Positions 10,264-32,000 of a DNA stretch of 32,000 nucleotides are shown one piece after another. Below the pieces are notes generated by a model that did no database searches, was not told the DNA's origin, and worked only from the letters and a program-made list of their open reading frames with translations. Within the stretch, counting starts at the first letter, position 1. Every line of letters begins with the position of its first letter. Source of the DNA: Candidatus Omnitrophota bacterium (GTDB lineage Bacteria > Omnitrophota > Gorgyraeia > 2-01-FULL-45-10); the NCBI GenBank assembly GCA_023818895.1, contig JAMWCX010000001.1, positions 673,692-705,691 on the forward strand. The letters are read 5' to 3'. Made by a program: the position numbers and the translations under genes.

Positions 10264-10269
10264 AAAGGG

Positions 10270-16359: not shown

Positions 16360-16392
16360 GAAGGGGCTCCCTTCATAGGAGGGCGCCCCTTC
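16360..16392 (-). terminator. GC-rich hairpin (putative terminator) between PG-binding lipoprotein 2 and the lrp gene
   Basis: gaaggggctccct-tcatagg-agggcgccccttc forms a 13-position stem with one mismatch (8 perfect GC-rich pairs at the base) and a 7-nt loop. The T-tract on the minus strand is weak (TAGTTATTGG...TTTTT). Confidence 0.45.
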
Positions 16393-16418
16393 CAAAACTA
16401 ATAATTAATAACTAGCAA

Positions 16419-16928: not shown

Positions 16929-17005
16929 ATCCTTCTCCCTCCAACAATAATTTAATGATTTACTTAAAAGTATACGATAGTAAATTATAAAATGCAAATG
17001 TAATT

Positions 17006-17782
17006 TTATTTAATGTGTTTTGCGGCTTCTTCGACCGACGCGCCATCGTGGACTATCGCCCTTATGGCCTTTATCATGCCTACTGCTTTTGGCGACTGCC
17101 ATATATTCCGGCCCATATCTACGCCCTTGGCGCCTGCCTGCATCGCTTTGTACGCAAGTTCAAGAGCATCCATCTCCGTATCAAGTTTAGGGCCTCCGGC
17201 TATGACAAGCGGCACAGGGCACGATCTGACAACCTTCTCGAAATTGTCACAGAAATACGTCTTGACAACCTGCGCACCCAGTTCCGCGGCTATGCGGCAG
17301 CACAATCCCAGAAATCTTGAATCGCGCTTTTCAAGCTCTTTACCTACAGCCGTGACCGCGAGGACTGGCATGCCGTAGCGCTGCCCCTCATTCACAAGTT
17401 TTCCCAGGCAGGTGAGGGTCTGGTTTTCGTGTTCTGTCCCAACGTATATCGAAAACGCCACCGCGGCTGCGTTCAGGCGTATCGCCTCTTCCATGTCGGT
17501 ATGTATGCTCTCATTGGAGAGCGCCGGCCCTATTATGGAATTGCCGCCGGACACTCTCAGGATAAATGGCATGTCGATACTGGCGTCTACGCAGTTGCGC
17601 AGGACTCCGCGCGTAAGCATCAGAGCGTCGGTGTATGGGATAAGTGGCGCTATAGTCTTAGTCGGCTCCTCCAACTTTGAGATAGGTCCAAGAAAATATC
17701 CGTGGTCTACCGCAAGCCAGACGGCGTTGCCGTCCTTGGGTTTCATCAGTCTTGAGAGTCTGTTCTTCATTCCCCAGTCCAT
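17006..17782 (-). CDS. Class I aldolase of the DhnA/FbaB (DeoC/LacD-like) family, probable fructose-bisphosphate aldolase
   Basis: 258 aa. Motifs seen are LAVDHGYFLGP, VVKTYF (Schiff-base Lys context) and VIAGGPK. Its position next to PEPCK fits a gluconeogenic role. An AroA-prime-type activity cannot be excluded. Confidence 0.85.
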   Translation of the reverse strand: MDWGMKNRLSRLMKPKDGNAVWLAVDHGYFLGPISKLEEPTKTIAPLIPYTDALMLTRGVLRNCVDASIDMPFILRVSGGNSIIGPALSNESIHTDMEEAIRLNAAAVAFSIYVGTEHENQTLTCLGKLVNEGQRYGMPVLAVTAVGKELEKRDSRFLGLCCRIAAELGAQVVKTYFCDNFEKVVRSCPVPLVIAGGPKLDTEMDALELAYKAMQAGAKGVDMGRNIWQSPKAVGMIKAIRAIVHDGASVEEAAKHIK

Positions 17783-17840
17783 GTTTTCCCCTCCTGACTA
17801 TACCTTAAAGAAGGCGAGAATCGTAACCAAAGACATTTGG

Positions 17841-19616
17841 TCATCTTCCTTTAAGCCTTGCCTTAAGGCCGTGCAGTTCTTCCATCAATTCCGTCGGGAA
17901 ACGATCGCCGAACTTGCCGAAGAACTCTTCGGCGTCCTGGGCTTCCTTCTGCGATTCGTGAACGTCTATCGCGAATAATCTTTCCAGATGTTCCTTAGAA
18001 ATCGAAAGGCCGCTCAAGTCCAGGTCTGAAAGATGCGGCAAAAATCCGATCGGAGTTTCCCTGACGCCCACACTGTTATTCACACGATCAATGATCCATT
18101 TGAAGACACGTATGTTATCGCCAAATCCCGGCCACATAAATTTTCCGTTCTCATCTGTCCTAAACCAGTTTATTGAGTATATTTTGGGAGGGTGTTTAAG
18201 CCTCCTGCCTATGGAAAGCCAGTGCCTGAAATAATCTCCCATATTGTAGCCGCAGAAAGGAAGCATAGCCATAGGATCGCGTCTTAAGACACCTTCCTTG
18301 TGGATGGCCGCCGCTGTTGTTTCAGAACCCATTCTCGCGCCCAGGAACACACCATGAGTCCAGCTTCTCGATTCTGTCACGAGAGGTATGGTGTGAGTCC
18401 TTCTTCCGCCAAAGAGGATAGCAGAGATAGGCACGCCTTGGGGATTGTCAAATTCTTTTGAGAGCATGTCGCACTGGTATACGGAAGCTGTGAACCTGGA
18501 ATTCGGATGCGCCGCTTTTTGTCCCAATGCCGGATCAAACTTCTTCCCCTGCCAATCCAGAAGGTGCGCCGGCGGATTACCGTCCATACCTTCCCACCAT
18601 GGTTCGTTTGTTTCGGCATTAAGCGCGGTATTGGTAAATAGTGTCGGGTAAAACGTGCCTTTAAGCAGCGTCTTTAGCATATTGGGGTTGGTCTTCATCG
18701 AGGTTCCGGGCGCGACCCCGAAGAAACCGGTCTCGGGGTTTATAGCCCACAGTCTGCCGTCAGGCCCTACGTTTAGCCAAGCGATGTCATCGCCAAGCGT
18801 CCATACCTTATATCCCGGCAGAGTTGATTGCATCATCGCCAGATTTGTCTTGCCGCAGGCACTCGGAAGCGCCGCCGTTATGTAGGTAATATTCCCTTTC
18901 GGATCCTCAACGCCCATTATGACCATGTGCTCAGCCAGCCAACCCTCCTGCTTACCCAGCCACGAGGCGATCCTAAGGGAAAAACATTTTTTGCCGAGGA
19001 GGGCATTACCACCGTATCCGGAACCGATCGACCAGACGAGATGCTCATCCGGAAAGTGCATGATAAAACGCTTATTGGGGTCGAAATCCCCTACAGAATG
19101 TATCCCTTTTACGAAATCTTCGGACGAGCCTATTTTAGCGATCACATCTTTTGACATGCGCGTCATTATGCGCATGCTCACTGCCACATAAGAGATATCG
19201 GTAAGTTGTATACACGCCTTAGCGTACGGCGACTTGGGATGGCCCATCATGTAAGGAAGCACATACATAGTCCTTCCGCGCATACAACCGTCGGACAGCT
19301 TCGTCATTTTTTCTTTCGCTTCTTTCGGGTCCATCCAGTTATTGTTCGGACCTGCTGTTTCTCTGTCCGGATGGCAGACGAATGTCAAATGCTCGGTGCG
19401 CGCGACGTCTGTCGGATGGCTGCGGTGGAGGTAGCTATTAGGATATGTCCTATGGTTTAGCTCATAGAATACGGGCTTTCCGGCTATCTTCTCTTCTTTC
19501 AAACCGGCCTCAACGATGCGGCGAGCCTCCTCTTCGGAGCCATCGCACCAGTATACTCTATCAGGCTTTGTCAGCCCTGCTACTTCATCGACCCATTTTT
19601 CAAGTGGTGTTGGCAT
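17841..19616 (-). CDS. pckG: Phosphoenolpyruvate carboxykinase (GTP)
   Basis: 591 aa. Motifs seen are RVYWCDGSEEE, FPSACGKTN-type kinase-1a (LPSACGKTNLAM), WLAEHMVIMG, GDDIAWL and FGGRR. This is an unambiguous GTP-PEPCK pattern. Confidence 0.95.
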   Translation of the reverse strand: MPTPLEKWVDEVAGLTKPDRVYWCDGSEEEARRIVEAGLKEEKIAGKPVFYELNHRTYPNSYLHRSHPTDVARTEHLTFVCHPDRETAGPNNNWMDPKEAKEKMTKLSDGCMRGRTMYVLPYMMGHPKSPYAKACIQLTDISYVAVSMRIMTRMSKDVIAKIGSSEDFVKGIHSVGDFDPNKRFIMHFPDEHLVWSIGSGYGGNALLGKKCFSLRIASWLGKQEGWLAEHMVIMGVEDPKGNITYITAALPSACGKTNLAMMQSTLPGYKVWTLGDDIAWLNVGPDGRLWAINPETGFFGVAPGTSMKTNPNMLKTLLKGTFYPTLFTNTALNAETNEPWWEGMDGNPPAHLLDWQGKKFDPALGQKAAHPNSRFTASVYQCDMLSKEFDNPQGVPISAILFGGRRTHTIPLVTESRSWTHGVFLGARMGSETTAAAIHKEGVLRRDPMAMLPFCGYNMGDYFRHWLSIGRRLKHPPKIYSINWFRTDENGKFMWPGFGDNIRVFKWIIDRVNNSVGVRETPIGFLPHLSDLDLSGLSISKEHLERLFAIDVHESQKEAQDAEEFFGKFGDRFPTELMEELHGLKARLKGR

Positions 19617-19624
19617 ATCTTTTC

Positions 19625-20653
19625 CTATTTTTGCGGTTCTATTATAACCTTCATCGAATCCTTTGCTTCCGCCACAAGCCTGAACCCTCTTCCGGTCTCC
19701 GCCAGCGGTAAGCGGTGTGTAATCATATCATAAACGCTAACTTTTCGCGAGCGTATTTTTTCCATCGCCTCAATATGGTCCTGCGGGCTTCCACCGTAAG
19801 AGCTCGTGACGGTGACCTCATTTCGCCAAAAGATATCGTTTATCGGAACCGGCATCATCGCGTCTTTTGTCGCCGCGGTGAAAATAAGGACCGTGCCGCC
19901 GCGTTCAACCGAACGCAGGCCCTGCTCGAAAGCGCTTTGCGCGCCGGCGCAGATTATCACCAGATCCGCCAGATAACCGTCGTTGAGCTCCTTAAGATTC
20001 TGCGGCTTATATGAGTCGGCGTGTATCGCGTGCTCAGCGCCGGCTTTTCGGGCCATTTCCAACCTAAATTCGGAAATATCTGTGGCGATTATGCGCCTTG
20101 CGCCGTTCGACTTCGCGAGCTTTATATGAAGGATGCCTGATATACCGCTTCCCACAACCAGAACCGTCTTGCCCTTCTTTAGATTGGCAAGTCTCTGGCC
20201 GCGCAGCACGCAGGCGAGAGGCTCGACGAACGTGGCCTCCTCAAAAGAGACGCTGCGCGGTATAAGGAATATTCCCTTCTCGACGTTTATCTTGGGAACG
20301 CGCACAAATTCGGAGAATCCGCCCGGGTCGTAATTTGTCGCGCGCAGTGTGTCGCAGGTCGTTTCGTGGCCGTCACGGCAGTAGCGGCATTCGCCGCAAG
20401 GCACGTGATGGGCAACGACAACCCTGTCGCCGGCCTTGTAGCTTCTGACACGCTTTCCTGTTGCCACAACGGTGGCCGCGATCTCGTGACCGAGAACGAG
20501 CGGCACCTTGTGGCTGCGATACCATTCCATGACATCGGATCCGCAAATGCCGCTCGCCTCGACCCGGACGAGCATTTCGCTATCGCCTATCTCGGGCTTT
20601 GCCATCTCCTGGATACGAATATCATTATTGGAATAGTACATTGCAACTCGCAT
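19625..20653 (-). CDS. Zn-dependent medium-chain alcohol/polyol dehydrogenase (threonine/sorbitol dehydrogenase-like)
   Basis: It has the catalytic Zn motifs GICGSDV and GHEIAATV, a structural Zn site CGECRYCRDGHETTC, and an NAD fold VVGSGISG. I place the start at the ATG at 20651-20653 (MRVAMYY...) after AGAGGG. The track's 11-codon extension is unlikely. Confidence 0.88.
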   Translation of the reverse strand: MRVAMYYSNNDIRIQEMAKPEIGDSEMLVRVEASGICGSDVMEWYRSHKVPLVLGHEIAATVVATGKRVRSYKAGDRVVVAHHVPCGECRYCRDGHETTCDTLRATNYDPGGFSEFVRVPKINVEKGIFLIPRSVSFEEATFVEPLACVLRGQRLANLKKGKTVLVVGSGISGILHIKLAKSNGARRIIATDISEFRLEMARKAGAEHAIHADSYKPQNLKELNDGYLADLVIICAGAQSAFEQGLRSVERGGTVLIFTAATKDAMMPVPINDIFWRNEVTVTSSYGGSPQDHIEAMEKIRSRKVSVYDMITHRLPLAETGRGFRLVAEAKDSMKVIIEPQK

Positions 20654-20765
20654 CTTGTTTTGCCCTCTTTGCAATCTATGTCGCAAAGCGCCAAAGGCTA
20701 CGATAAGTTAGCATATCTTATTTTAGCGCCGGCGGCTCTTCTTAGGATCTTTGCGCGATTGGCTA

Positions 20766-21245
20766 TTATATGTATTTTGTTAAGCTTTTTACTATGAAAT
20801 CGGTATTACCTTGAGTTCTGTCAGGTATATTTACCTCGTCTACATGGGTTATGCCCTTCGACTCAAGGACAACTCTTATATTTCTGAAGCATTTCCCCAC
20901 ACCTAGACCGCTCCCGGAAGTAAGAAGGACGATCGCGCGTTTGCCGTGCAGGCCATTTACCTTATCCAAATATGTATTCATTGCTGGCACAGGGGCAAAT
21001 GCCCAGACAGGACAACCGATTACTATGAGGTCATAATTGCTGGCATCAAAATCTATGCCGTCCTGAAGCTCAGCTCGTTGTCTGGTAAATGCCGCGTAAC
21101 ACTGAGCACCGAATGTCATTATCTCCTTAACGGGCTTAAGCCTCTGGATAACGACCTCGCCCTTTTCCTTGAGCTTTTCGGCCCATAAGTTGATAACTCT
21201 ATCCGTATTACCGCTAAATGAGTAATAGGTAATGATGGTCTTCAT
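20766..21245 (-). CDS. Flavodoxin-like fold protein
   Basis: I place the start at the ATG at 21243-21245: MKTIITYYSFSGNTDRV, an FMN phosphate-binding S-x-S-G-N-T loop. LIVIGCPVW is also present. The track's TTG extension (to 21317) is hydrophobic junk running into the AT-rich intergenic region. Confidence 0.8.
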   Translation of the reverse strand: MKTIITYYSFSGNTDRVINLWAEKLKEKGEVVIQRLKPVKEIMTFGAQCYAAFTRQRAELQDGIDFDASNYDLIVIGCPVWAFAPVPAMNTYLDKVNGLHGKRAIVLLTSGSGLGVGKCFRNIRVVLESKGITHVDEVNIPDRTQGNTDFIVKSLTKYI

Positions 21246-21411
21246 AATAGATTGCCTTTCTATAAAAATAAAAAATAATATAATATGCTGTGGGCTAATT
21301 GCGGGATATATTAACAAATAATAAATATAAAGTCAACTTGCACGGCCAATAACCATTTCCTCGCCTACCACTACCATTGTCCACTACAAGATAGGCGATT
21401 AGCAAATTATG

Positions 21412-21420: not shown

Positions 21421-21449
21421 TAGTAAATTAAAAAAGGAGGATTGATACG

Positions 21450-21920
21450 ATGAAAGTGATTAGGGTCACTATAACTATCATACTCATTTTTTTCGCAGCT
21501 GTCCCATCTTTTGCGGCCAACGCAAAACGAAGCGCTGTGATTGCCGCCGTGCGGGGAAGCGTTGAGGTTAAGCCCCTGAAAGGCGAATGGGTACCGGCAA
21601 AGGCCAACACAACCCTTGCAGAGGGCGACTTTATAAAGACAGGCAAAGACTCCTGGGTCCTGATAAATATAGACGACTCTGGCGAGACCGCTTCTGTCGA
21701 GCTGAAAGAGAGTTCCAACATGGAGCTTTCGCTTCTCTCGATAGACGAGAAAACCGGCGCGACGAGGACGCTACTTGATATGTACGCCGGAGAGGTGATG
21801 GTCAAGGCGAAGAACCTCGGCGGCAAGAAATCCAAATTCGACGTCAAGACCCCGACCTCCATAGTCGCGGTCAAAGGCGACAGCGCCTCGTTTTCCGTCA
21901 AGGTCGAACGAATAGAATAG
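21450..21920 (+). CDS. Secreted FecR-domain protein
   Basis: 156 aa with a signal peptide (IILIFFAAVPSFAANA). The pattern G-S-V-E-V...L-x-x-G-D-x-I-x-T-G...V-x-L-x-x-x-S...F-D-V-K-T-P-T-S-I-V-A-V-K-G-D matches FecR (PF04773-like). A strong AAGGAGG SD lies 9 nt upstream. Confidence 0.8.
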   Translation: MKVIRVTITIILIFFAAVPSFAANAKRSAVIAAVRGSVEVKPLKGEWVPAKANTTLAEGDFIKTGKDSWVLINIDDSGETASVELKESSNMELSLLSIDEKTGATRTLLDMYAGEVMVKAKNLGGKKSKFDVKTPTSIVAVKGDSASFSVKVERIE

Positions 21921-21931
21921 ATGAGGAGGCA

Positions 21932-23812
21932 GTGAAACCGGCCCCCGCTAGAAAAAATATCTCTTCCCTACTCGTCCCTGTATTGCTTATTATCGCCCTC
22001 GGGTTCGCGGTATACGGAAACTCGATAACAGGTAAGTTCGTCTGGGACGATGAATACCTCATAAAATTTAACGGCTTTATACGCAATCTCTCTCGCCTTA
22101 ACATATTATTCCTCACGGATATCGGTGCCGGATCCGGAAGGTGGTTCGGGTTCTACCGACCTCTGCAGATGGCCTCTTATGCATTGAATTACCGGTTCGG
22201 TGAACTGGACGAAAGATGGTATCACATTACTAATATTGTCCTGCACATTCTGGCCGCTCTCTGCGTCATGGCCCTGGTCAGGACGCTATTTAAAGACGAC
22301 CTTGCGGCTTTTTTCACATCTGCCCTATTCCTGGTGAGCCCCCTGCAGACGGCCGCCGTCACTTACATATCGGGAAGGGCCGACCCACTAGCGGCTGTCT
22401 TCTTTTTCCTTGCCCTCATCTTATATATAAGGAATATCGATAGCGAAAATGCCTTCGCTTACGTGGCGATGATTCTTTGCTACGCGGCCGCGCTGCTTTC
22501 AAAAGAACTGAGTCTTGTGCTTCCGCTACTTCTACTACTATATCATTACTCATTCAAGCGGAAGATCAAGGTATGGTATATCATGCCAATGGTAATCTTG
22601 CCCCTTATATATATCGCCTTGCGATTGACGGTCCTGCGTTATACGCTCGCGTTCGGCACAACAGCCCAGGCTAAGACGACTCTACTTCAAAGACTGCCGG
22701 GTTTTTTGGTCGCCATCGTCGAATATACGCGGCTTTTACTTGCGCCTGTCGGTCTTCACATGGAATATGGTAATGTTCTCTTTTCTTTTTTAGACTGGAG
22801 GGCGGCAACCGGCGCTCTTATACTAGCAGGCCTCATAACTCTTATGGTAAAAAACAAAGACAGGAGTTTGGTAATATTCGGCATCGGATTTTTCCTAATC
22901 ACACTTCTTCCCATGTCAAACCTATATCCTATAAACGCCTATATGGCGGAACACTGGTTATACTTGCCCTCTATAGGCATATTTCTTCTGGCCGCAAGTG
23001 GTATAAGCCATCTTGCAAAGAAGAAAGGTGTTGGAATCCTCGCCATCGTCGCAGCTGCGATGGTGGTGGCGTTTTGGTCATACCTTACGGTAAGACAGAA
23101 TACCTACTGGAAGGACCCCATAACGTTCTACAAGCGCACCCTGCAGTTTTCGCCGCGGTCGATACACGCCCTCAATGACCTCGGCAGAATATACGAGGCC
23201 GAAGGAAGGGTCGAAGAAGCGATGGCGCTTTACGAGAAGGCGATAGAGACTGATCCGAAGTTCCCCCTTCCTTATAACAACCTTGCGGTCCTTTACCATA
23301 ATATTGGTAAAGATGAGGAGGCAATCCCCCTTTACGAAAAGGCGTTGAAACTCGATCCAAACTACGGCGACGCATTGAACAACCTGGCGGTCTCGTATAA
23401 CGCGGCCGGAAGAAGCGAAGACGCGATAAAACTCTACAAGAAGGCGATAAAGGTAAACCCGAGTTTCGCTGGCGCATGGTCAAACCTCGGAAGCGTCTAT
23501 TCGTCTTTGGGAAGAAATGACGAGGCGATAGCCGCATTCAGGAAGGCGATAGAAATAGATCCGCGTTTTGCTGACGCCTACTATAACCTGGGATTATTGT
23601 ACTCGAAGATGGGAAATACTGATGAGGCATTTGTTCAATACAGAAAGGCCGTTGCCGCAAACCATAAGCATGGTTTATCGCACATAAGCCTCGCTGTTAT
23701 ATATTATTATAACAGAGAATATGCGAGGGCGATAGCGCACTGCGACGAGGCTGTGCGGCTGGGGATAAAAGTAAAGCCAGAATTTCTTGAAGAATTAAAT
23801 AAATTCCGATAA
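21932..23812 (+). CDS. TMTC/PMT-like GT-C membrane glycosyltransferase-like protein with C-terminal TPR array
   Basis: 626 aa with a GTG start after GAGGAGG. The N-terminal roughly 390 aa is polytopic and has the first-loop motif GKFVWDDEYLI (F-x-W-D-D, as in TMTC/DUF1736 and PMT_2-type GT-C enzymes). The C-terminus has about six 34-aa TPRs (A-x-x-x-Y-x-K-A-I-x-x-x-P repeated). Confidence 0.85.
   Translation: MKPAPARKNISSLLVPVLLIIALGFAVYGNSITGKFVWDDEYLIKFNGFIRNLSRLNILFLTDIGAGSGRWFGFYRPLQMASYALNYRFGELDERWYHITNIVLHILAALCVMALVRTLFKDDLAAFFTSALFLVSPLQTAAVTYISGRADPLAAVFFFLALILYIRNIDSENAFAYVAMILCYAAALLSKELSLVLPLLLLLYHYSFKRKIKVWYIMPMVILPLIYIALRLTVLRYTLAFGTTAQAKTTLLQRLPGFLVAIVEYTRLLLAPVGLHMEYGNVLFSFLDWRAATGALILAGLITLMVKNKDRSLVIFGIGFFLITLLPMSNLYPINAYMAEHWLYLPSIGIFLLAASGISHLAKKKGVGILAIVAAAMVVAFWSYLTVRQNTYWKDPITFYKRTLQFSPRSIHALNDLGRIYEAEGRVEEAMALYEKAIETDPKFPLPYNNLAVLYHNIGKDEEAIPLYEKALKLDPNYGDALNNLAVSYNAAGRSEDAIKLYKKAIKVNPSFAGAWSNLGSVYSSLGRNDEAIAAFRKAIEIDPRFADAYYNLGLLYSKMGNTDEAFVQYRKAVAANHKHGLSHISLAVIYYYNREYARAIAHCDEAVRLGIKVKPEFLEELNKFR
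23159..23770 (+). repeat. About six tandem TPR units (coding repeat within the GT-C/TPR gene)
   Basis: The 34-aa periodicity is visible: EEAMALYEKAIETDPKF / EEAIPLYEKALKLDPNY / EDAIKLYKKAIKVNPSF / DEAIAAFRKAIEIDPRF / DEAFVQYRKAVAANHKH / ARAIAHCDEAVRLG. Confidence 0.8.
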
Positions 23813-23882: not shown

Positions 23883-26800
23883 CTATTCCCCCCTCTCCTC
23901 TACTATATTAACGGCATTTGCCGCTATTAAAATAGCGACATCTTTTGACGCGGCAGGATAAAGAGTATTAATAATTGTGGAGCCGGGATTATTTCTGCCA
24001 GGCGTAGTATCGCGCTCGTAGGAATTCGAGCTTGTCAGGCTGCTTTCATCCTGCTTTTGCGGCGCGGGCGGTGCCGGAGGCGCTATAATAATCCAGTTGG
24101 TGTTGTTGCCTCCGTCTATAGAGTTCTGAGCGGTCACGGCTGGCCCCGCGTTATTAGAATTTGAGATATTCACATACGACACACTTGCCGCACCCTGCGG
24201 ATCTATAGTCCACTGGTCGACTCCCGCTCCGCCACTTCTTGAAAGCGTCAGGTAGTTATTGGCCGCTCCTGTAAGCGTAAGGGCGCCTGTCAATGTCTGG
24301 GTTGAACCGGATTGGAAAGAAAGCGTCTTTCCCGCGGTCGTGCACGTCAGGTTATTGAAGTTATTGTCATTACCCGAGATAGTGGATGTGCCGCCGCCGG
24401 CGAAGATGACATTTGAGGTGCCGGCATTGAACGTGCCGTTATTCGTCCAATTTCCGCCTATCGTCCATGTTGAGCCATTCGCGGCGTTTACTATCACCCC
24501 TGCGCCTACCGACAGCGACCCTGCAAGCGTCACGTTACCGCCGAAGCCGGCGGTATTCGCACTAAGTATGTCGAGCGAATTAAGAGCGAGATTTCCTCCT
24601 ACAGCGCCTGTGACAGATATATTCGCGCTTCCTGAATCGAGCGCAAGATTACGGTTTGAACCGGAACTATCGAGGGTGCCGGTAATAGTGATTGCGCCAT
24701 CCGAGCCAGCCGTGTTAGTGTCTATGGTAACGTCCGATGCAAGTTGTGTGTTGCCTGTAAGGGTAACTGTGTTGCCGGCGGCATTAGAAGTCGTTATATT
24801 GCCTGCGAGAGTTATCGTCCCACCGCTCAGGGAAACCGTGTTTATCTCGTCGCCCGAGCCTATAGCGCCTACAGAGACCGCTCCTGCGCCGGCATTGACC
24901 GAAAGGTCTTCGCTTGAGGTGCCGCGCACAGCGCCTAAAGCTACATTGCCTCCGCCCGTAGTTATAGTAAGGTCCGCCCCGTCGCTCAAAGTAGTCGTTC
25001 CGGCATTCATTGTGACAGCGCCGTTATTGGCTCCTGTATTTATGGTAAGGGCATTGCGCACCTGCACAGCTCCGGCTATGTTGACGTTATTTGACGCAAG
25101 GTTGGAGGTCGTGATATTGCCGAACAGGTGCACCTGGCCCCCTGCCAGGCCCACAGTGTGTATCTCATTACCGGAACCAATCTGTCCCGCGTAGATGGTG
25201 CCTGAACCGGCGTTCACCGTAACATTCTCTGACGAGGTGCCTCGCAGTGTCCCAAGAGAGACATTTCCGCCAGCCGTGTTAACTATGAGGTCTGAACCGT
25301 TGGAAAGATGAATCGTGCCCTGAAACAAAATATCGTCACCGCTAGATGTAAAGGTAGTGGCGGCATTACCGCTTATATTCAGGTCGTCGCCTGTCGGGTC
25401 ATACGTCTGCTTGTTTGCGTTATAATTCGTCCCAGCCAGGGTGACCGCCGTTACACCTGTCACGGACGTGTCGCCCGTTACGCCCGCCGCACCCGAGGTG
25501 CCGATGTTCGCAAGCGATATCTCATCGCCTGTTGCGGTGAAAGATGAAAGCGCGCTTGAGCTTCCTATAGCGCCTGTGACGGTAATATCGGCGCTTCCTG
25601 AGGTAAGCGTAAGATTACGCGCGCTTCCACCTGAGGAGTCTATCTTGCCGTCAATCGCTATGGAACCGTCGGCGCCTGCGGTGTCGGTATCTATGGTAAG
25701 ATCGTTTTCCACCTTTACAGTACCCTCTAGCGTCACGGTGTTGCCAACAGCGTTAGAAGTGGTAATATTGCCATAGAGATGTATCTCGGTGGCCTCTATC
25801 TCCACCGTATTTATTTCGTCTCCCGCGCCTATAGTGCCCACAAAAACGTTTCCCCCCGCATTCACGGCAAGGTCTCTGTGGGAACCTGCGCCGCGGATGG
25901 TGCCAAGCGATATATCCCCATCCGAGGCGCTGGTATCTATGGTAATATCTCCCTCCAGATATACGGTGCCGCTCGCGTTAAAGGTGGATCCGGCAGCAGA
26001 TCCTGTTATGATATTGTTATAAAGATGTGCCTCCGCGCCAGCAAGACTCACTGCATTTATATTATCACCTAAAGCGGTACCGATAGACCCTATAAAGATA
26101 TTACCGGTGCCGGCATTCACTGTAAGGTCTTTGGCTCCTGTGCCGTGCACATCCCCAAGACCGATGGTGCCGTTTGATGCCCTAACGACAAGATTTGCGC
26201 CATTATTGAGTGTTATGGTGCTGCCCCAGTTTGCTAGCTCGATAGAGCCGCCAGTAAAAACGTTCTCGATGATAATGTCATCGGCGGCGGCATTTGAGGG
26301 ATCTATGATGATAGGAACCGAATGGTTCACAATGTTGCCGCCATCAACGGTAAGATTGGCTCTGAATGTCATAGAAGTACCGCCCCAATCCGTTACGGTG
26401 CAGGAATTGATGTAGAAATCGCTATCCACTACGGTGGTAAGCCTGCCCGAACCCTGTGCGGCATTGAAGATGACATCGTCATCGGCTCCCGGCGTAACAC
26501 CGGTAGACCAGTTGGTGCCAACAGACCACAGATCAGAAGTCGTGCCCCACCAGTAGACGGTAGGATCCCAGTTAAAGTTATTGCCGCGTCCCGACGAATT
26601 AGTCATAACTATTTTTTTATCGCTTAAATTGTATGAATCTTTGACCCACACATATTCAAGATCACGGATTCCGCGTGGATCGATAAACCATTGTCTTCCG
26701 TCTTCGGCAGAAACAAGTTTTACGAGTTCCGCGTAAGCACCTTTCACTTTCAGGTTGCCGAGAACGGTAAATATCTTGCCAGGCTCAAAATATATTTCTC

Positions 26801-27767
26801 TTCCAGGGACGATACATTCAAAATCAAGAACAGTCACATCCCCGTAAAAATTATAAGAGCCTGCGCCGTTAAGCACCGTCTTTGGCGCGTCATACTCCGA
26901 CTTACGCACCCTCACAGCTGCAGAAAGCGATATCTCGCCATTTGAGTGTACTTTTAGTTCATCAGCTGAGATATTTCCGCTGAGGTTAATAGCCTTTGTG
27001 AAAATGCCGGTAATGCTCTGGGCGTCGAGAGTAACGATGCCGCCTTCGGCGTTCAGCAAACCGGTGTTCTTAATAGCCTCCGTGATCGGGCGACCCTGAA
27101 AATCATAAACAGTACCTGCCGCCTTCTCTTCTATCGCCACTGAGACAAGTCCATTATTTGAAATGTCAAGCCTGATGGCGTCACCGGAAGCAAGGTGTAT
27201 CCTGCCTATAGGAGCCGTTATTGTGCCTGAATTTTCTATTGCGCCCGATATAAGGACACCGAAGCCGCCATTCGAAATATTTATTGTGCCAGCATTTACA
27301 AGAAGCGAGTCGAGTTCCTGGGCGCTTACCTTACGAAAAACGAACTTACTATCCAGAAAATCCCGGCTATTTATGTCGCGAGTGGAAAGAACGACCGAAC
27401 CTGCGTTTAGACTCGCAGTGGGAGCCACATAAATGCCGGCTGGGTTTATGAGGATGAAAAGCCCATTACACTGCAGCATGCCGGCAAGATTGCTAAAATT
27501 CCCACCGACATCCCTGTTTAATATCGAACTTGAGGCGCCGGGCAAGGTGATAATAACGGACTCACCGGTCCCTATATTAAAAGACGAGTAGTTAATGATC
27601 GCCTTGTCAGAGGCATTTATAGTCATAGTGCCTCCGCTGACCTCTATGATGGCGGAACCTTCTTCAACAGCTGGATCGGTGGGAAGCGAATAAACCGTTT
27701 GGCCAAGCAATGTCATAATGGTAATCGCTGTTGTGAGGATTTTTTGTGAAAGCGATAACTTATTCAT
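23883..27767 (-). CDS. Giant secreted beta-helical protein with N-terminal TPS/haemagglutination-activity domain (TpsA-like exoprotein), ORF B
   Basis: 1294 aa, rich in G/T/N/S/A. It has a signal peptide and a TPS domain (see sub-feature), followed by Trp-motif WWGTTSDLWSVGTNWSTGVTPGADDDVIF. It then has four ~90-105 aa repeat units, two copies of the shared module, a PAPPAP linker and a 58-aa tail. An AAGGA SD lies upstream. Confidence 0.9.
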   Translation of the reverse strand: MNKLSLSQKILTTAITIMTLLGQTVYSLPTDPAVEEGSAIIEVSGGTMTINASDKAIINYSSFNIGTGESVIITLPGASSSILNRDVGGNFSNLAGMLQCNGLFILINPAGIYVAPTASLNAGSVVLSTRDINSRDFLDSKFVFRKVSAQELDSLLVNAGTINISNGGFGVLISGAIENSGTITAPIGRIHLASGDAIRLDISNNGLVSVAIEEKAAGTVYDFQGRPITEAIKNTGLLNAEGGIVTLDAQSITGIFTKAINLSGNISADELKVHSNGEISLSAAVRVRKSEYDAPKTVLNGAGSYNFYGDVTVLDFECIVPGREIYFEPGKIFTVLGNLKVKGAYAELVKLVSAEDGRQWFIDPRGIRDLEYVWVKDSYNLSDKKIVMTNSSGRGNNFNWDPTVYWWGTTSDLWSVGTNWSTGVTPGADDDVIFNAAQGSGRLTTVVDSDFYINSCTVTDWGGTSMTFRANLTVDGGNIVNHSVPIIIDPSNAAADDIIIENVFTGGSIELANWGSTITLNNGANLVVRASNGTIGLGDVHGTGAKDLTVNAGTGNIFIGSIGTALGDNINAVSLAGAEAHLYNNIITGSAAGSTFNASGTVYLEGDITIDTSASDGDISLGTIRGAGSHRDLAVNAGGNVFVGTIGAGDEINTVEIEATEIHLYGNITTSNAVGNTVTLEGTVKVENDLTIDTDTAGADGSIAIDGKIDSSGGSARNLTLTSGSADITVTGAIGSSSALSSFTATGDEISLANIGTSGAAGVTGDTSVTGVTAVTLAGTNYNANKQTYDPTGDDLNISGNAATTFTSSGDDILFQGTIHLSNGSDLIVNTAGGNVSLGTLRGTSSENVTVNAGSGTIYAGQIGSGNEIHTVGLAGGQVHLFGNITTSNLASNNVNIAGAVQVRNALTINTGANNGAVTMNAGTTTLSDGADLTITTGGGNVALGAVRGTSSEDLSVNAGAGAVSVGAIGSGDEINTVSLSGGTITLAGNITTSNAAGNTVTLTGNTQLASDVTIDTNTAGSDGAITITGTLDSSGSNRNLALDSGSANISVTGAVGGNLALNSLDILSANTAGFGGNVTLAGSLSVGAGVIVNAANGSTWTIGGNWTNNGTFNAGTSNVIFAGGGTSTISGNDNNFNNLTCTTAGKTLSFQSGSTQTLTGALTLTGAANNYLTLSRSGGAGVDQWTIDPQGAASVSYVNISNSNNAGPAVTAQNSIDGGNNTNWIIIAPPAPPAPQKQDESSLTSSNSYERDTTPGRNNPGSTIINTLYPAASKDVAILIAANAVNIVEERGE
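24087..24419 (-). repeat. Shared giant-protein module, copy B2 (ORF B aa 1117-1227)
   Basis: SNVIFAGGGTSTISGNDNNFNNLTCTTAGKTLSFQSGSTQTLTGALTLTGAANNYLTLSRSGGAGVDQWTIDPQGAASVSYVNISNSNNAGPAVTAQNSIDGGNNTNW. Confidence 0.75.
24573..26132 (-). repeat. Four diverged ~90-105 aa coding repeat units in ORF B (aa 546-1065)
   Basis: The unit core is (D/N)L(T/A/S)VNAG-x-G-x-(I/V)-x-(I/V)G-x-IG-x-G(D/N)EI(N/H)TV-x-(L/I)-x-(G/A)-x-x-(I/V)-x-L-x-GNITTSN-x-x-(G/S)N-x-V. It starts at about aa 546, 631, 846 and 952. Units 2 and 4 also share the extension TIDT-x-TAG-x-DG-x-I-x-I-x-G-x-(I/L)DSSG...RNL-x-L-x-SGSA-x-I-x-VTGA. The units are diverged at the DNA level. Confidence 0.8.
26562..26870 (-). repeat. Shared giant-protein module, copy B1 (ORF B aa 300-402, most diverged)
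   Basis: NGAGSYNFYGDVTVLDFECIVPGREIYFEPGKIFTVLGNLKVKGAYAELVKLVSAEDGRQWFIDPRGIRDLEYVWVKDSYNLSDKKIVMTNSSGRGNNFNW. Confidence 0.6.
27348..27683 (-). other. TPS (two-partner secretion) / haemagglutination-activity domain of ORF B (aa 29-140)
   Basis: The segment is LPTDPAVEEGSAIIEVSGGTMTINASDKAIINYSSFNIGTGESVIITLPGASSSILNRDVGGNFSNLAGMLQCNGLFILINPAGIYVAPTASLNAGSVVLSTRDINSRDFL. It follows the Haemagg_act consensus position by position (aIInW.sFNIg.GE.v.F.qP...s.iLNRVtGg..S.ilG.L.aNGqvfLiNPNGI...ga.vnvg.lvaST.di). The only notable deviation is NPNGI to NPAGI. Confidence 0.85.
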
Positions 27768-27841
27768 ATATTTTTCCTTAAGTATATCATGAAAAACCGG
27801 TTGTGTTAATATTCAAATTTTTTTGAGCTCTGCGCTAACTA

Positions 27842-30800
27842 CTATCTAACCTCGCCCGTATGAACCGCCTTCTTGCCATCTGTCAAAAGCACCGTCTTAT
27901 CCTCTATGATGCCTTTTTCGTCGTAAGGCGACACGGCAACCTTCCCTTCAAAAACTATTACTGTTGTTTGGTATTTTCCGCGAGGGTAATTCTTATATCT
28001 CTTGCCAACCTCCTCGCGATCCACAAAATCAACGGAAAATGATATTTGGGGTCCTATGGTCATCGGTTTTACAACATCAGGCGTTGGAGGCTGAGGCGGA
28101 TTTATGACGATAGGCGGAATATACGGATCGATCACCACGATCCCTGAATGTGTGGCGCTTATTCCTGTCGCGGGATCCGCAACAGTTAGAGAATATACCC
28201 CCGCCACGCTGAAGACAATCCCTCCGAACTGTCCAGTTCCGTTATTCAAGGCTGCCGAGGCCGGCAGGCTGCCTGAGCCGTTTGAGCTGAAGGCGACCTG
28301 ATCGGCGTAATTTGTCTTCAGGTTCGCATACGGATCGAACGCCGTCACGGTGCACGAAAGGCTAGTTCCCACGACCTGGCCGCTCGTGATGCCGGAGATC
28401 GTGAAGCTCGCAAGGCGCGCCGGCAGAACGAGGATCGGATCAGTGGTCTTTATCACACCGTCATGCTCGACGGTAAGAACGGGCGTCTCGGACGAGTTGA
28501 AGAATGTTATATGGGATGTCTCGAAGACTCCTGTTCTCAGGTCCACAAGCGCAAGCGCGCCGTCGCGTAGGTCATCATCGGCTCCGAGCGTAGGCCTTGT
28601 TCCGTTCGGCGATACTGTAGCACTAGTCGTATAAGTGAATATCTCCCGGTCGGTAAAGTAACTTGCGTCGACATCCTTTATCGTGATGTTACCGAAGATA
28701 TCATAGGCGGAGATTACAATTGTAAAGGGCGTCCCTGCAACCTGATTTTCTATCGCGACCCATCCGAAATGGTGGAGGCCGGCGCATTCAACGGTAATAG
28801 CCGTATCCTCGCCGAACTGGTGGCCGACCGTATCCTCTACCCTTACCGTATGCTCGCCGGCCTTTCTCAATATAAGGGAATTCGCGAATACGTGGATACC
28901 GGCGTCGGAAAGCGAGAACTGATAGTCAGACGGCAGGGTCGCGGAAGTGTCTGTGGCGCTGAATGTTACAATGCCCTGATAGTCGTATTTGAGGTTCTGA
29001 TAAATATCAAACGCGCTTACCTTGGGCGATGCAGCAACTCCCGCCACTATCGGATCCGGGATATCCTCTATTGTAAAGTAGTTTAAGTCTGTCGGCTTGA
29101 CCAGAAGGTCGAGGTCATAGGCTTCATCGCCGAACGAGTTGCGTCTTGAGTCTTCAACGTCAACGCTCACTGTCTCTGCCCTGTAAGCGATAAGCGTAGC
29201 GGCTCCTAAGGCAGGATCAGAGACGCCTTCGGTAAAGTTGATATTGACCCAGCCGCCCACATTGACGCCTTCGACCGTCGGGATGCTTACACCGTCGGGA
29301 GCAATGCCGGGGCCGTAGAACCTCATTTGTTGAGTTCCCGTAAACGAGAGCGCAAGCCCACCGGTGCCGTCGAACGCCCGCACGGTGAGCTCGTTTGTCT
29401 TTCCCGCCTCCATCTCGGATGCGCCTTCGACAGTGAAGTGGTGGACGAGATACCAGCCGGTATTATTTCCTGAGTCGCGCGAGTTATCGTTTATAATTGT
29501 CATGCCGCTTGCGTTTTTGGAGTCTTTTACATCGATATAGCTTACGACAACTGATGAGGCTTCGATCTCCCACTGAACGCCATCTGTGGAGCTCCTTAAG
29601 ATAAGGAGGTTATTTATATCGTCTCCGGTGAGAGTAAGGGTACCGGCAACCGTCTGCCTTTCACCTGAGCCGAAGCGCAGCTCCTTTCCAGCTGCCACGC
29701 ACTCAAGGTCATTGAAGGTGGTCTGGCCGGATATCCTGGAAAGGCCGGTGCCTGTGAATATAACCTTACTTGCCCCTTTGTCGAAGGTGCCTTTATTGTC
29801 CCAATCGCCGGTTATCGTAATGGTATTATCTCCTGCTATTAGGGTACCTTCGTTGAGGAGGCTTCCCTCTATATCTACCTGCCCTGCCGGTAAATAGGTA
29901 AATCCGGCGGGAGTCCAGACTGTCTGATTATCCGCAAAAGTAGCCGTACCTGAGCGTACTTTGAAATGGACATTGGCATCGGCTATCGCCACGTCCGCAA
30001 GATAGGCGTTCGTCATCGCAGTTGTCGACTCACTGCGCAGCGCTATGCGGCCAACGTACATCTCAAGGCCGGTGATATCGGTAACAGAATCAGACGCAAG
30101 CGTAACAAGGTTCGCCTCGTACAGGCCTGAGTTCAGATAAATGAGTATCCTGTGGTCGGCCTCTACGGGAACGCCTTCGAACTTGAAGTTGTAGCTTCCC
30201 TCGTCCGAGGTCAGGATCGAATCAATCCACGTATTCTCGGTGCCGTCGTGGACGTAGATATTCATGACATAACCATCGGCAAGGAATACGCCCGGGCTTA
30301 AATAGATGATACCGGATACATCGACTCCGAATATCCATCTCGGATCTCCCTCGCGACAGTCTGTGTTGCCGCTATTTATCGAGTAGCGGGCGAAGATATT
30401 ATTGCCCGATATAACTTCAGAGTTCCGCACATCGACGAAGAATACCGTCTGGACGTTGTTTGGGTTGGCTATCTTGAAGCGGTCGGCCGGCGTGTCGCCG
30501 GAGCTCGTGCTGCGCAATAATATCTCGTCGCCTTCGGACCACGAAGGATCTCCTAAGGTGAGAGTGCCGTTAATGGTCTGGGTCGAGCCGGACTCGAATA
30601 TCAGGGTCTTGTTCTTTGTCTGGCAGGCGAGGTTGTTAAACATGGTCGAGCCGCGGATCTCGGAGGAGCCTGTGCCGATGAATTCGACGGTCGAGCCGGT
30701 TGTAGTTACCGTCGGCCCGGCGGTGCGAGACCAGTCGCCGGTAAGCTTAATGGTCCTATTGGTGATATTGAGGGCCGCGTCAGCGCTTGATGTCTCAATG

Positions 30801-32000
30801 GAAATCGAGCCGATGGTCACATCATCGATAATGGTGAGTTTTCCCTTATTCTGCAGGCGGACGATGACGTTACTTATATCGCCCAGGCCGGCGGAGCGCA
30901 GTTCCGTGACGGTGCCTGCGGCTGTAGCGACATTATTATTGATGATGAGCTCGCCACCGGTAGGATATTGCGAAGCTGTTTGCGTAAATATTGTCCCTGC
31001 GGCGCCGCTAGCAATTGTGCCCGATCCGCCGTAAGCGGTCATAGTTAGAGATGACGGTATTAAATCATTCCCGACGATAGATATCCTGCCGCCGCCTCCG
31101 CCGTAAACACAACTATATCCTGTGGTAGGACCGCCACCGTTTGCCCTTATGATTCCGTTTCCACTCAGCGTGCCGGCATCTATCCAGACGCTTCCGCCGG
31201 AGCCTCTTCTGCCTAAAATCGTATGGGTGCCATCGGCGCTGATAATTCCATTTACCGTGACTACGGCTGCTACTATCTTTATCGCTCCGCCGCCGTAAGC
31301 AGGGCCGTATCCATAATCCTGCTGGCCTCCTGAACCTAATGAAACCGGTTCATCGAATGAGCCATAGGTAGCATCCTCGCTATTTCCTCCTCCTTTGCCT
31401 CCGTATGTTCCGCCGTAAGTAGAGCCTCCCGGGCCCTGGGTGGTCGTAAATCCAAAACCGTCTGCGCTAATCATCGCGCCAAGCTCTACCGTGAGGCTTC
31501 CCGAGATGTTCAGTATTCCTCCCGATCCTTCATACAGCCCTGTCTGCGGATTCAAATTGTCATAGACATCCCCGTCTATATATAGCTTACCGGCATCAAA
31601 CGTCCCATTACCGTTTAAATCGGTAAAAGATTCTCCGGTATCCCATTGTCTGTTGTTATTTGAGTCAATAAACGGTTCTGCTTTTAATGTCAGGATATTA
31701 AAGTCGTAAGAGATATCGTTGCCCAAATACAGTGTATTCCACAACTGAAATGTTCCGTTTCTTACTTGGTCGTTAAAGTAAATCGTTCCGGCACGTCCTC
31801 TGTCAATAGACGCCCAGCCGCCAATTACTTGCACAAGGCCTGTGAAGCTGTAGGTGGTGGTTCCTTTGAAGCTTATCCTGCCGCCGCCTCCGCCGTAAAC
31901 ACAACTATATCCTGTGGTAGGACCGCCACCGTTTGCCCTTATGATTCCGTTTCCACTCAGCGTGCCGGCATCTATCCAGACGCTTCCGCCGGAGCCTCTT
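27842..32000 (-). CDS. Giant surface protein, ORF A, 5'-truncated by the window edge (at least 1385 aa in window)
   Basis: The track reports 1330 aa from a GTG at 31834. I translated the 55 codons upstream to base 31999 (…RGSGGSVWIDAGTLSGNGIIRANGGGPTTGYSCVYGGGGGRISFKGTTTYSFTGL-VQVIGG…) and found no stop, so the real start lies outside the window. It contains Gly-rich beta-helix-like repeats, EF-hand/dockerin-like loops and 2 shared modules. It also has a CarboxypepD_reg-like segment (SGIIY...TSDEGSYNFKFEGVP), 4 Ig-like repeats, a Pro-rich linker and a 73-aa C-terminal domain. Confidence 0.85.
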   Translation of the reverse strand, partial: RGSGGSVWIDAGTLSGNGIIRANGGGPTTGYSCVYGGGGGRISFKGTTTYSFTGLVQVIGGWASIDRGRAGTIYFNDQVRNGTFQLWNTLYLGNDISYDFNILTLKAEPFIDSNNNRQWDTGESFTDLNGNGTFDAGKLYIDGDVYDNLNPQTGLYEGSGGILNISGSLTVELGAMISADGFGFTTTQGPGGSTYGGTYGGKGGGNSEDATYGSFDEPVSLGSGGQQDYGYGPAYGGGAIKIVAAVVTVNGIISADGTHTILGRRGSGGSVWIDAGTLSGNGIIRANGGGPTTGYSCVYGGGGGRISIVGNDLIPSSLTMTAYGGSGTIASGAAGTIFTQTASQYPTGGELIINNNVATAAGTVTELRSAGLGDISNVIVRLQNKGKLTIIDDVTIGSISIETSSADAALNITNRTIKLTGDWSRTAGPTVTTTGSTVEFIGTGSSEIRGSTMFNNLACQTKNKTLIFESGSTQTINGTLTLGDPSWSEGDEILLRSTSSGDTPADRFKIANPNNVQTVFFVDVRNSEVISGNNIFARYSINSGNTDCREGDPRWIFGVDVSGIIYLSPGVFLADGYVMNIYVHDGTENTWIDSILTSDEGSYNFKFEGVPVEADHRILIYLNSGLYEANLVTLASDSVTDITGLEMYVGRIALRSESTTAMTNAYLADVAIADANVHFKVRSGTATFADNQTVWTPAGFTYLPAGQVDIEGSLLNEGTLIAGDNTITITGDWDNKGTFDKGASKVIFTGTGLSRISGQTTFNDLECVAAGKELRFGSGERQTVAGTLTLTGDDINNLLILRSSTDGVQWEIEASSVVVSYIDVKDSKNASGMTIINDNSRDSGNNTGWYLVHHFTVEGASEMEAGKTNELTVRAFDGTGGLALSFTGTQQMRFYGPGIAPDGVSIPTVEGVNVGGWVNINFTEGVSDPALGAATLIAYRAETVSVDVEDSRRNSFGDEAYDLDLLVKPTDLNYFTIEDIPDPIVAGVAASPKVSAFDIYQNLKYDYQGIVTFSATDTSATLPSDYQFSLSDAGIHVFANSLILRKAGEHTVRVEDTVGHQFGEDTAITVECAGLHHFGWVAIENQVAGTPFTIVISAYDIFGNITIKDVDASYFTDREIFTYTTSATVSPNGTRPTLGADDDLRDGALALVDLRTGVFETSHITFFNSSETPVLTVEHDGVIKTTDPILVLPARLASFTISGITSGQVVGTSLSCTVTAFDPYANLKTNYADQVAFSSNGSGSLPASAALNNGTGQFGGIVFSVAGVYSLTVADPATGISATHSGIVVIDPYIPPIVINPPQPPTPDVVKPMTIGPQISFSVDFVDREEVGKRYKNYPRGKYQTTVIVFEGKVAVSPYDEKGIIEDKTVLLTDGKKAVHTGEVR
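28130..29443 (-). repeat. Four tandem Ig-like (bacterial Big-type) coding repeats in ORF A (aa 798-1235)
   Basis: The recurrent pattern is h-x-h-F-x-h...AG-x-x-h-x-h-x-h-x-A-(F/Y)-D-x-(Y/F)-x-N. Examples are HHFTVEG..AGKTNELTVRAFDGTG; LNYFTIEDIPDPIVAGVAASPKVSAFDIYQN; LHHFGWVAIENQVAGTPFTIVISAYDIFGN; LASFTISGITSGQVVGTSLSCTVTAFDPYAN. Confidence 0.7.
29444..29779 (-). repeat. Shared giant-protein module, copy A2 (ORF A aa 686-797)
   Basis: GASKVIFTGTGLSRISGQTTFNDLECVAAGKELRFGSGERQTVAGTLTLTGDDINNLLILRSSTDGVQWEIEASSVVVSYIDVKDSKNASGMTIINDNSRDSGNNTGWYLV. Confidence 0.75.
30329..30703 (-). repeat. Shared giant-protein module, copy A1 (ORF A aa 378-502)
   Basis: TGSTVEFIGTGSSEIRGSTMFNNLACQTKNKTLIFESGSTQTINGTLTLGDPSWSEGDEILLRSTSSGDTPADRFKIANPNNVQTVFFVDVRNSEVISGNNIFARYSINSGNTDCREGDPRW. 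Confidence 0.7.
31082..31208 (-). repeat. Perfect 127-bp direct repeat, copy 1 (in-frame inside ORF A)
   Basis: The base-by-base comparison with 31874-32000 is identical (tatcctgccgccgcctccgccgtaaacacaactatatcctgtggtaggaccgccaccgtttgcccttatgattccgtttccactcagcgtgccggcatctatccagacgcttccgccggagcctctt). The offset is 792 bp, or 264 codons. Confidence 0.95.
31874..32000 (-). repeat. Perfect 127-bp direct repeat, copy 2 (truncated by the window end, may extend further)
   Basis: It is identical to 31082-31208. Positions 31873 and 31081 differ, so the repeat boundary on that side is defined. The other boundary lies beyond the window. Confidence 0.95.

Follow-up and report, generated by a model that had tools for sequence, protein, structure and literature searches.

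In two-partner secretion (TPS; type Vb secretion), the genes for the exoprotein TpsA and its transporter TpsB are usually adjacent, but adjacency is not obligatory (PMC5422565). Orphan TpsAs, such as FhaS and FhaL of Bordetella and those of Neisseria, are served in trans by an unlinked TpsB (PMC10449530, PMC5422565). We analyzed a 32,000-nt stretch (hereafter, the window) of a metagenome-assembled genome (MAG) of a Candidatus Omnitrophota bacterium (assembly GCA_023818895.1, contig JAMWCX010000001.1, positions 673,692–705,691). Two consecutive genes on its minus strand encode large repetitive proteins: open reading frame (ORF) B, a tpsA gene, and ORF A, which lies upstream of it and reaches the window edge. 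Several type Vb exoprotein genes probably form a tandem array of which the region is the 3′ end, with a transporter that is unlinked or unseen. Coordinates refer to the window; related loci and homologous proteins carry labels beginning with L and P, respectively.

TpsA genes without an adjacent transporter, as observed here, occur in Bordetella (FhaS and FhaL, beside the FhaB/FhaC pair) and among the orphan TpsAs of Neisseria meningitidis, which TpsB2 secretes (PMC10449530, PMC5422565). Like these organisms, this MAG encodes several TpsA paralogues per genome, but secretion in trans is documented in Bordetella and Neisseria, whereas for this locus we infer it. Both FhaB and ORF A have a C-terminal element apart from the passenger; however, it is a prodomain of about 1200 aa in FhaB and a tail of 65 aa in ORF A, and the sequences are unrelated. 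The Fil_haemagg repeats of FHA (filamentous hemagglutinin) were not detected in ORF B.

The adhesin EtpA of enterotoxigenic Escherichia coli (EtpA/EtpB system) is, like ORF B, a long β-helical exoprotein without a toxin end, the helix being presumed in the case of ORF B. The etpBAC operon includes the TpsB and a glycosyltransferase, whereas no tpsB is present in the 32 kb of the ORF B locus. The passenger repeats of EtpA and ORF B are unrelated, and an uncurated module of about 95 aa is found twice in ORF B. With CdiA of the CdiA/CdiB systems ORF B has in common the N-terminal TPS domain and a large passenger, presumed to be β-helical as well; unlike CdiA, ORF A and ORF B have no VENN/pretoxin motif, C-terminal toxin or immunity gene.

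Giant ORFs of Omnitrophota exceed 20 kb and encode multiple predicted transmembrane helices (PMC10066038), and a role in adhesion was proposed for them (PMC10066038; bioRxiv 10.1101/2023.11.21.568195). The genes studied here belong to the same phylum and are likewise very large, poorly annotated, presumably surface-exposed and fragmented in assembly, and the initial annotation suggested that they could be of this kind. This link did not hold: "giant" was an overstatement for genes of 3.9 kb (ORF B) and at least 6.6 kb (gene A, of which ORF A is a part); even the neighboring gene for P0391 has only 17 kb. Moreover, these genes use, or resemble those using, the TPS route. The word "hemagglutinin" is absent from both giant-ORF papers (PMC10066038; bioRxiv 10.1101/2023.11.21.568195), and no indexed paper combining Omnitrophota with two-partner secretion was found.

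Another group of similar proteins consists of Gly-rich units (e.g., P0122 and P0125) that are 29–48% identical to the units of ORF A and of the next protein on the scaffold, P0128, and carries the same ~95-aa module. These proteins have a plain signal peptide and a different conserved C-terminus, whereas ORF A ends in putative Ig-like repeats and a TpsA-type tail. Overall, the initial annotation correctly described ORF B as a TpsA in a window without tpsB, toxin end or immunity gene, but it missed an assembly break marked by a 127-nt repeat, the conserved tail of ORF A and a FecR gene at 21450–21920.

ORF B Is a Complete tpsA Gene

The following features were assigned to ORF B and to the spacer upstream of it:

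23883–27767, minus strand: ORF B, complete tpsA gene of 3.9 kb encoding 1294 aa (open reading frame, GenBank identity)
27687–27767, minus strand: putative Sec signal peptide, aa 1–27 (MNKLSLSQKILTTAITIMTLLGQTVYS, then LP), read by eye
26922–27668, minus strand: TPS secretion domain, aa 34–282 (PF05860, TIGR01901 and PDB sequence matches)
26568–26846, minus strand: shared ~95-aa module, copy 1, aa ~308–400 (profile match)
24372–26567, minus strand: repetitive Gly/Thr/Asn/Ala-rich passenger, aa ~401–1132, presumed β-helix (composition and repeats)
24084–24371, minus strand: shared ~95-aa module, copy 2, aa ~1133–1228 (profile match)
23886–24083, minus strand: Pro-rich linker and a C-terminal tail of its own (..YERDTTPGRNNPG..) (sequence comparison)
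27781–27809, minus strand: best sigma-70-like match of the region (TTAACA-17-TATACT, 10/12, TG), inside the 74-nt spacer between ORF A and ORF B

ORF B is identical to MCM8790742.1, encoded on a 732,676-bp scaffold of a Candidatus Omnitrophica MAG and already known in GenBank as a [quoted passage not shown] The n-, h- and c-regions of its signal peptide were judged by inspection of the sequence, and the "...(A/S)LP" junction recurs in relatives. The TPS domain stands out far above chance: it was recognized by the Pfam model PF05860 (aa 34–282; E 4.5e-21; 76.3 bits, the cut-off being 33.5) and the NCBIfam model TIGR01901 (55.3 bits against 29.1, E 4.5e-15, aa 58–132). A search of PDB sequences with aa 29–271 retrieved the secretion domains of EtpA (best, E 1.7e-27), HMW1 (1e-17) and HxuA (7e-16). 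The motifs SFNIG, ILNRDVGG, LINPAGI (NPxGI-type) and STRDI, the four on which the initial assignment as a TpsA-type protein with a signal peptide was based, are all present.

At E ≤ 0.1 the TPS domain is the sole Pfam match of ORF B, and Fil_haemagg/FHA repeats were not found. A motif scan revealed no VENN or similar pretoxin motif in ORF A or ORF B, and neither protein matched a toxin family of Pfam or NCBIfam as a whole or, for Pfam, in segments. The convergent gene begins its approach so close to ORF B, with just 70 nt in between, that an immunity ORF would not fit. The absence of a toxin end and of an immunity gene was thus noted correctly before, as was the dissimilarity of the passengers to FHA, ShlA, CdiA and HMW proteins, to which no curated model linked them. 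Judged from its sequence, ORF B is a genuine TpsA exoprotein without a toxin or immunity module. As it contains no toxin or enzyme domain, its role may be that of an adhesin or surface fiber.

The passenger includes a diverged internal repeat (57-nt match, 81% identity, copies 966 nt apart). The C-terminal tail of ORF B is kept in P0002 and P0003 and differs from that of ORF A, the 65-aa sequence of which ORF B lacks. The number of sigma-70-like sites in the region is no higher than expected by chance, and the two ORFs are not separated by a terminator-like site.

ORF A Is a Fragment of a Gene Broken in Assembly

ORF A and its parts are as follows:

27842–32000, minus strand: ORF A, the 3′ 1385 codons of the larger gene A (stop codon at 27842–27844, in frame to 31999)
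31874–32000, no strand assigned: 127-nt segment at the window edge, 100% identical to 31082–31208
31082–31208, no strand assigned: internal copy of the 127-nt repeat (exact match)
30680–31999, minus strand: Gly-rich units, aa 1–440, predicted to be all-β and solenoid-like (homology, structure model)
31595–31666, minus strand: two DxNxNxxxD (EF-hand/dockerin-like) motifs, aa 112–135, in a non-conserved, low-confidence insert of the model
30326–30655, minus strand: shared module, copy 1, aa 449–558 (profile match, model)
29441–29731, minus strand: shared module, copy 2, aa 757–853 (profile match, model)
28115–29434, minus strand: four tandem β-rich repeats of ~105 aa, aa ~856–1295 (repeat analysis; He_PIG, E 0.002)
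27845–28039, minus strand: conserved C-terminal tail, aa 1321–1385, belonging to no curated family (alignment, profile search)

As initially reported, ORF A is located on the same strand as ORF B, its stop codon 74 nt upstream of the ORF B ATG, and is open at the window edge, with 1385 codons and no in-frame stop up to the last full codon at 31999. It corresponds exactly to the 1385-aa protein MCM8790743.1 (NC938_03475; P0121), annotated as a "hypothetical protein" and "partial." The usual largest k in de Bruijn assemblers is 127, and the exact 127-nt repeat at the window edge is the signature of an assembly break at k = 127. The next protein on the scaffold, P0128 (MCM8790744.1, NC938_03480), comprises 788 aa and is partial at both ends. 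Its last 41 aa are identical to aa 187–227 of ORF A and its first 42 aa to its own aa 316–357; together with the 127-nt copy these identities show that all three broken ends are exact repeats of k-mer length. The accessions of ORF B, ORF A and P0128 are consecutive (MCM8790742, 43 and 44).

The simplest join from P0128 to ORF A passes through about 37 residues. Gene A would then encode at least about 2210 aa (at least 6.6 kb), with its N-terminus missing and with the copy number of a 264-aa (792-nt) unit known as a lower bound; ORF A represents its C-terminal ~63% or less. The 2173 aa that ORF A and P0128 provide show no TPS domain, the N-terminus of gene A lying outside the sequence. Scans of genome and metagenome contigs with ORF A returned the distant loci L001 and L002 only.

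The Gly-rich unit of ORF A has more than 1500 matches among uncharacterized large proteins of Planctomycetota, Verrucomicrobiota, Lentisphaerota and Omnitrophota. AlphaFold modeled aa 1–460 as all-β with short regular strands (predicted local distance difference test score, pLDDT, 78; predicted template modeling score, pTM, 0.83). Foldseek comparison of both ORF A models with the PDB yielded nothing significant (best E 0.066), and the weak neighbors of the aa 1–460 model (E ≥ 0.066) are all β-helix adhesins or tailspikes. The "EF-hand-like loops" of the initial annotation correspond to the two DxNxNxxxD motifs in the poorly modeled insert and found no support.

The module shared by the two proteins, proposed in the same annotation, proved to be real. 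About 95 aa long, it is present in two copies in ORF A, two in ORF B and one in P0128, with domain E-values of 1e-38 to 1e-41 for a model built from the same five copies that were scored. Among 240 homologues retrieved with one ORF or the other, 72 also contain it. Its consensus is F.NL.C..GK.L.F..G.TQT..G.LTL.G...L.L.S...G..W.I...SYVDV.DS.N....A..S.D.GNN.NW, and it was modeled at pLDDT above 90. In the model of aa 440–1385, confidence is restricted to the tail and the two modules with the helix between them. A "CarboxypepD_reg-like sandwich" received no support from hidden Markov models (HMMs) and falls in a low-confidence model, and the "Ig-like repeats" could be traced to a four-fold repeat of ~105 aa with one weak He_PIG match (E 0.002). 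Their Ig-like nature is plausible but unconfirmed, the model having a pLDDT below 50 there.

When the two ORFs were divided into ten segments and searched against Pfam at E ≤ 5, nothing but this He_PIG match was returned, and no other Pfam or NCBIfam family was assigned to gene A, whole or in segments. A C-terminal autotransporter barrel or RTX nonapeptides were not detected by Pfam in ORF A or ORF B, whole or segmented.

The C-Terminal Tail Links Gene A to TpsA Proteins

Following a Pro-rich linker, the last 65 aa of ORF A have the consensus KYxKxYxxGKYRTVVIVFEGKVxVAPYDEKGP..LTAG.KA..GEIK-stop. The same sequence can be aligned to the very C-terminal ends of P0004, P0005, P0011, P0015 and P0017, TPS proteins that all come from the match list of ORF B. 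The ORF A tail scored E 7e-30 against the local tail profile and 98 bits in the library search. This profile, made from seven tails, was searched against 1.84 billion representatives and matched 228 clusters at E ≤ 1e-3, of which 135 reached E ≤ 1e-10. Where the match was full-length, it ended within 20 residues of the C-terminus in 128 of 144 cases. The tail was found in 19 proteins that are 700 aa or longer and begin with a signal-like segment; 18 of them have a TPS domain, which Pfam confirmed in five of these N-termini. Another 22 tail proteins of this size, in which both the signal-like segment and the TPS domain are missing, look N-terminally truncated.

The association of the tail with the TPS domain in 18 of 19 intact N-termini indicates that gene A probably encodes a TpsA too, and the conserved 65-aa tail appears to be a hallmark of Omnitrophota TpsAs. 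Since ORF A bears this TpsA-marking tail, the pair most likely consists of two TpsA genes rather than a TpsA and something else. A single protein, P0483 (4736 aa; L008:10001–24211), combines a TPS domain, Gly-rich units (36–38% identical to those of P0128 and ORF A), four shared modules and the tail. When P0483 was analyzed as a whole, Pfam hmmscan reported zero families, whereas its first 330 aa alone matched the TPS family with 70.3 bits. Existing Pfam annotation is blank for P0483 and for a 2277-aa TpsA of L007. Just upstream of P0483, a 100-N scaffold gap lies inside a tail-bearing gene of at least 3273 aa (L008:1–9828).

A possible origin of the tail as a FecR-fold fragment that pairs with a FecR-like protein was also considered and rejected at the level of sequence profiles (hhalign probability 0.2%, E 0.3).

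Tandem Arrangement of Exoprotein Genes

The same scaffold carries, two locus tags upstream of P0128, a 17-kb gene for the 5671-aa protein P0391 (MCM8790746.1, NC938_03490), which ends in the tail known from ORF A and contains the shared module three times. Its annotated N-terminus consists of GLUG repeats, which in other proteins lie downstream of the TPS domain, and aligns to the post-TPS parts of TpsAs. The succession of the tail-bearing P0391, gene A and ORF B on one scaffold implies that the window represents the 3′ end of a tandem TpsA-type array. Similar arrays were found elsewhere: three tpsA genes are located in L007, and tandem giant genes in L008 and L012. The contig of L003 (GCA_964352425.1), the closest syntenic relative, begins just upstream of the ORF B orthologue with a 65-aa fragment that is 50% identical to the ORF A tail. 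In L012 the gene for the TpsA P0462 is closely followed by an ORF of at least 6168 aa (L012:13132–20722).

The Transporter Gene

Domain scans detected no POTRA, ShlB or Omp85 domain in any ORF of the 32-kb window, and a six-frame scan with an HMM of 60 Omnitrophota TpsBs revealed neither a TpsB nor a remnant (best E 0.56), in agreement with the initial annotation. Type I secretion genes (ABC transporter, MFP and TolC) were likewise not found in the window, in which the membrane-energy genes are ExbB/ExbD only. The initial annotation considered this an anomalous partner-less system. However, tpsB is adjacent and convergent to tpsA in only three of eight related loci (L004, L005/L006 and L010) and was not seen in the available flanks of the other five (L003, L007, L008/L009, L011 and L012), including 13 kb in the closest relative, L003; orphan TpsAs are also documented elsewhere (PMC10449530, PMC5422565). 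A tpsA without an adjacent tpsB is common in Omnitrophota. In the window, the position held by tpsB in relatives is occupied by the gene of a polytopic TPR membrane protein (21932–23812).

TpsBs are abundant in Omnitrophota, as a profile of two of them retrieved hundreds. At least two further TPS proteins of the same MAG are encoded on other contigs, P0012 (MCM8791089) and P0016 (MCM8791144). The TpsBs of Omnitrophota often have about 700 aa rather than about 575 aa (e.g., P0248, P0265, P0268 and P0272). Some of these longer forms contain TPR repeats (PF00515/PF07719) beside POTRA_2 and ShlB, an unusual extension for the family.

ORF B would be exported by the Sec machinery and recognized by an FhaC-type Omp85 transporter (TpsB), with the TPS domain docking on the POTRA domains of the latter. 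The Gly/Thr/Asn-rich passenger would then thread through the barrel and fold outside into a β-helical fiber. Gene A probably starts with a signal peptide and TPS domain in its unseen part. A tpsB gene is expected either ahead of the array or at another site in the genome, its product serving several TpsAs in trans.

Neighboring Genes

Two genes on the opposite strand precede ORF B in window coordinates:

21450–21920, plus strand: small secreted FecR-domain protein, 156 aa (PF04773, E 9e-7), a conserved companion of TPS loci
21932–23812, plus strand: polytopic membrane protein with C-terminal TPR repeats, 626 aa, convergent to ORF B; not a β-barrel

The FecR protein shares 63% identity with its counterpart in L003, encoded next to the ORF B orthologue P0002, and 49% with that of L005, where the gene stands between tpsA and tpsB. 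In L010 the gene order is FecR, CHASE2-GGDEF, tpsA and then convergent tpsB, and the TpsA P0008 carries a fused FecR domain at its C-terminus. Genes for a small FecR protein and for a diguanylate cyclase of the CHASE2-GGDEF type recur beside Omnitrophota TPS loci (L005:15273–19302, L007:10001–24460, L010:5634–16509). That the FecR companion sits with a CHASE2-GGDEF sensor in relatives suggests a regulatory link, and the small FecR protein may be a conserved periplasmic companion of the exoproteins. No paper joining FecR, CHASE2 and filamentous hemagglutinin was found. A minus-strand ORF of nearly equal length (21428–21901) overlaps the FecR ORF; it is regarded as spurious because the family match and orthologues were found only for the plus-strand frame.

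The gene next to ORF B is convergent, as initially stated. Its product has about 10 predicted membrane spans and a "KFVWDDEYLI" motif after the first span, and its N-terminal 410 aa gave no match in Pfam or among PDB sequences. We take its layout to resemble that of membrane glycosyltransferases of the TMTC/PMT type (GT-C), and one may guess that it acts as such an enzyme on the exoproteins.

Farther along the window, gene order is kept between 14620–21317 and L003:5223–12437 (flavodoxin, zinc-dependent alcohol dehydrogenase, GTP-dependent phosphoenolpyruvate carboxykinase, DeoC-type aldolase, PG_binding_1 protein, AsnC regulator and aminotransferase). The segment from flavodoxin to tpsA differs, with FecR followed by the TPR membrane protein in the window and a 302-aa protein of no assigned function followed by FecR in L003. 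At 6903–11109, two adjacent GH57 genes, one with a branching-enzyme C-terminal domain, lie beside a DUF4912/glucodextranase-B protein. This looks like a glycogen/α-glucan cluster unrelated to the TPS locus.

Alternative Explanations

Several observations weigh against a tandem array of TpsA genes served by a distant transporter. No TpsB of this MAG was found, and no MCM879... accession occurs among the top 120 TpsB matches, which include six NCBI/nr-sourced proteins. At the annotated start of P0391, signal peptide and TPS domain are both missing, so that the start may have been mis-called or a further assembly break may be present. The β-helix fold is backed at the class level only, by the model of ORF A aa 1–460, and is presumed for the ORF B passenger. 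Among the 120 listed matches of the ORF B search there is no second TPS protein of this scaffold, an argument of little weight because the search was limited by a word prefilter. The Gly-rich unit occurs in none of these 120 TPS proteins, and full-length proteins built of this unit (P0122 and others) mostly have a plain signal peptide and no TPS domain.

The latter points would be accounted for if ORF B alone were a TpsA and gene A coded for a Gly-rich β-helix surface protein of the kind represented by P0122 in the Planctomycetes–Verrucomicrobia–Chlamydiae (PVC) superphylum, exported by another route, with the module and tail acquired by domain shuffling. Indeed, the relatives P0122, P0123, P0126, P0127, P0142 and P0164 have signal peptides without a TPS domain, and P0229 has a prepilin-type N-terminus. 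This explanation seems unlikely in view of the tail, which goes with a TPS domain in nearly all N-terminally intact proteins and is missing from the P0122-like proteins, where a different C-terminal motif is found, and in view of P0483, where TPS domain, Gly-rich units and tail stand together. It is still less probable that the genes are secretion-incompetent orphans or use a non-TpsB route (BamA/TamA or a lineage-specific one) in a genome truly devoid of TpsB. The lack of tpsB in the 32 kb, in what was recovered from the MAG and in 13 kb of L003 is compatible with this possibility, but no damage is seen in ORF B, whose signal peptide and TPS motifs are canonical, and three or more intact TPS proteins are retained in the MAG. 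Moreover, the phylum is rich in TpsBs, three related loci have the gene next to tpsA, and the window covers just about 4% of the scaffold.

Contact-dependent inhibition toxins of the CdiA type, or pieces of Omnitrophota "giant ORF" predation proteins, could be suspected from the TPS N-terminus, the Omnitrophota origin and the 5671-aa neighbor P0391. For ORF A and ORF B this suspicion is effectively refuted: toxin family matches, a VENN/pretoxin motif and space for an immunity ORF in the 70-nt gap are all lacking, and giant ORFs are defined by more than 20 kb and multiple transmembrane helices (PMC10066038), against 3.9, at least 6.6 and 17 kb here. A tandem array of type Vb exoprotein genes therefore remains the preferred reading of the region.

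A speculative extension of this reading, to which we assign a low probability, is that the TPS loci of Omnitrophota make up a distinct subclass in which the tail would stay in the periplasm as a stopper or handle, be read by the FecR protein and signal to the CHASE2-GGDEF cyclase. Engagement or loss of the fiber, for instance upon host attachment, might in this way be coupled to cyclic di-GMP, and the tandem giant TpsAs might be host-attachment fibers of ultra-small, possibly epibiotic bacteria. The window contains the FecR gene and the tail, while the cyclase and the transporter are elsewhere.

Implications

The open gene end is an assembly break, and the "missing" transporter probably reflects gene arrangement or an assembly break rather than new biology. 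In MAGs, repeats of k-mer length routinely break up large repetitive genes for exoproteins, and where an open giant ORF at a contig edge or an absent partner gene is met, an assembly effect should be suspected first. Since whole-length HMM scans can miss the TPS domain in very long low-complexity proteins, as exemplified by P0483, TPS proteins are under-annotated in such lineages.

The novelty of the locus is modest and consists of two uncurated modules and the recurring association of TPS, FecR and CHASE2-GGDEF genes in Omnitrophota; the picture of the two-partner secretion mechanism is unchanged. The ~95-aa module and the 65-aa tail (228 clusters), with FecR and CHASE2-GGDEF neighbors, make up a recognizable Omnitrophota flavor of type Vb secretion, which could bear on how these nanobacteria attach to other cells.

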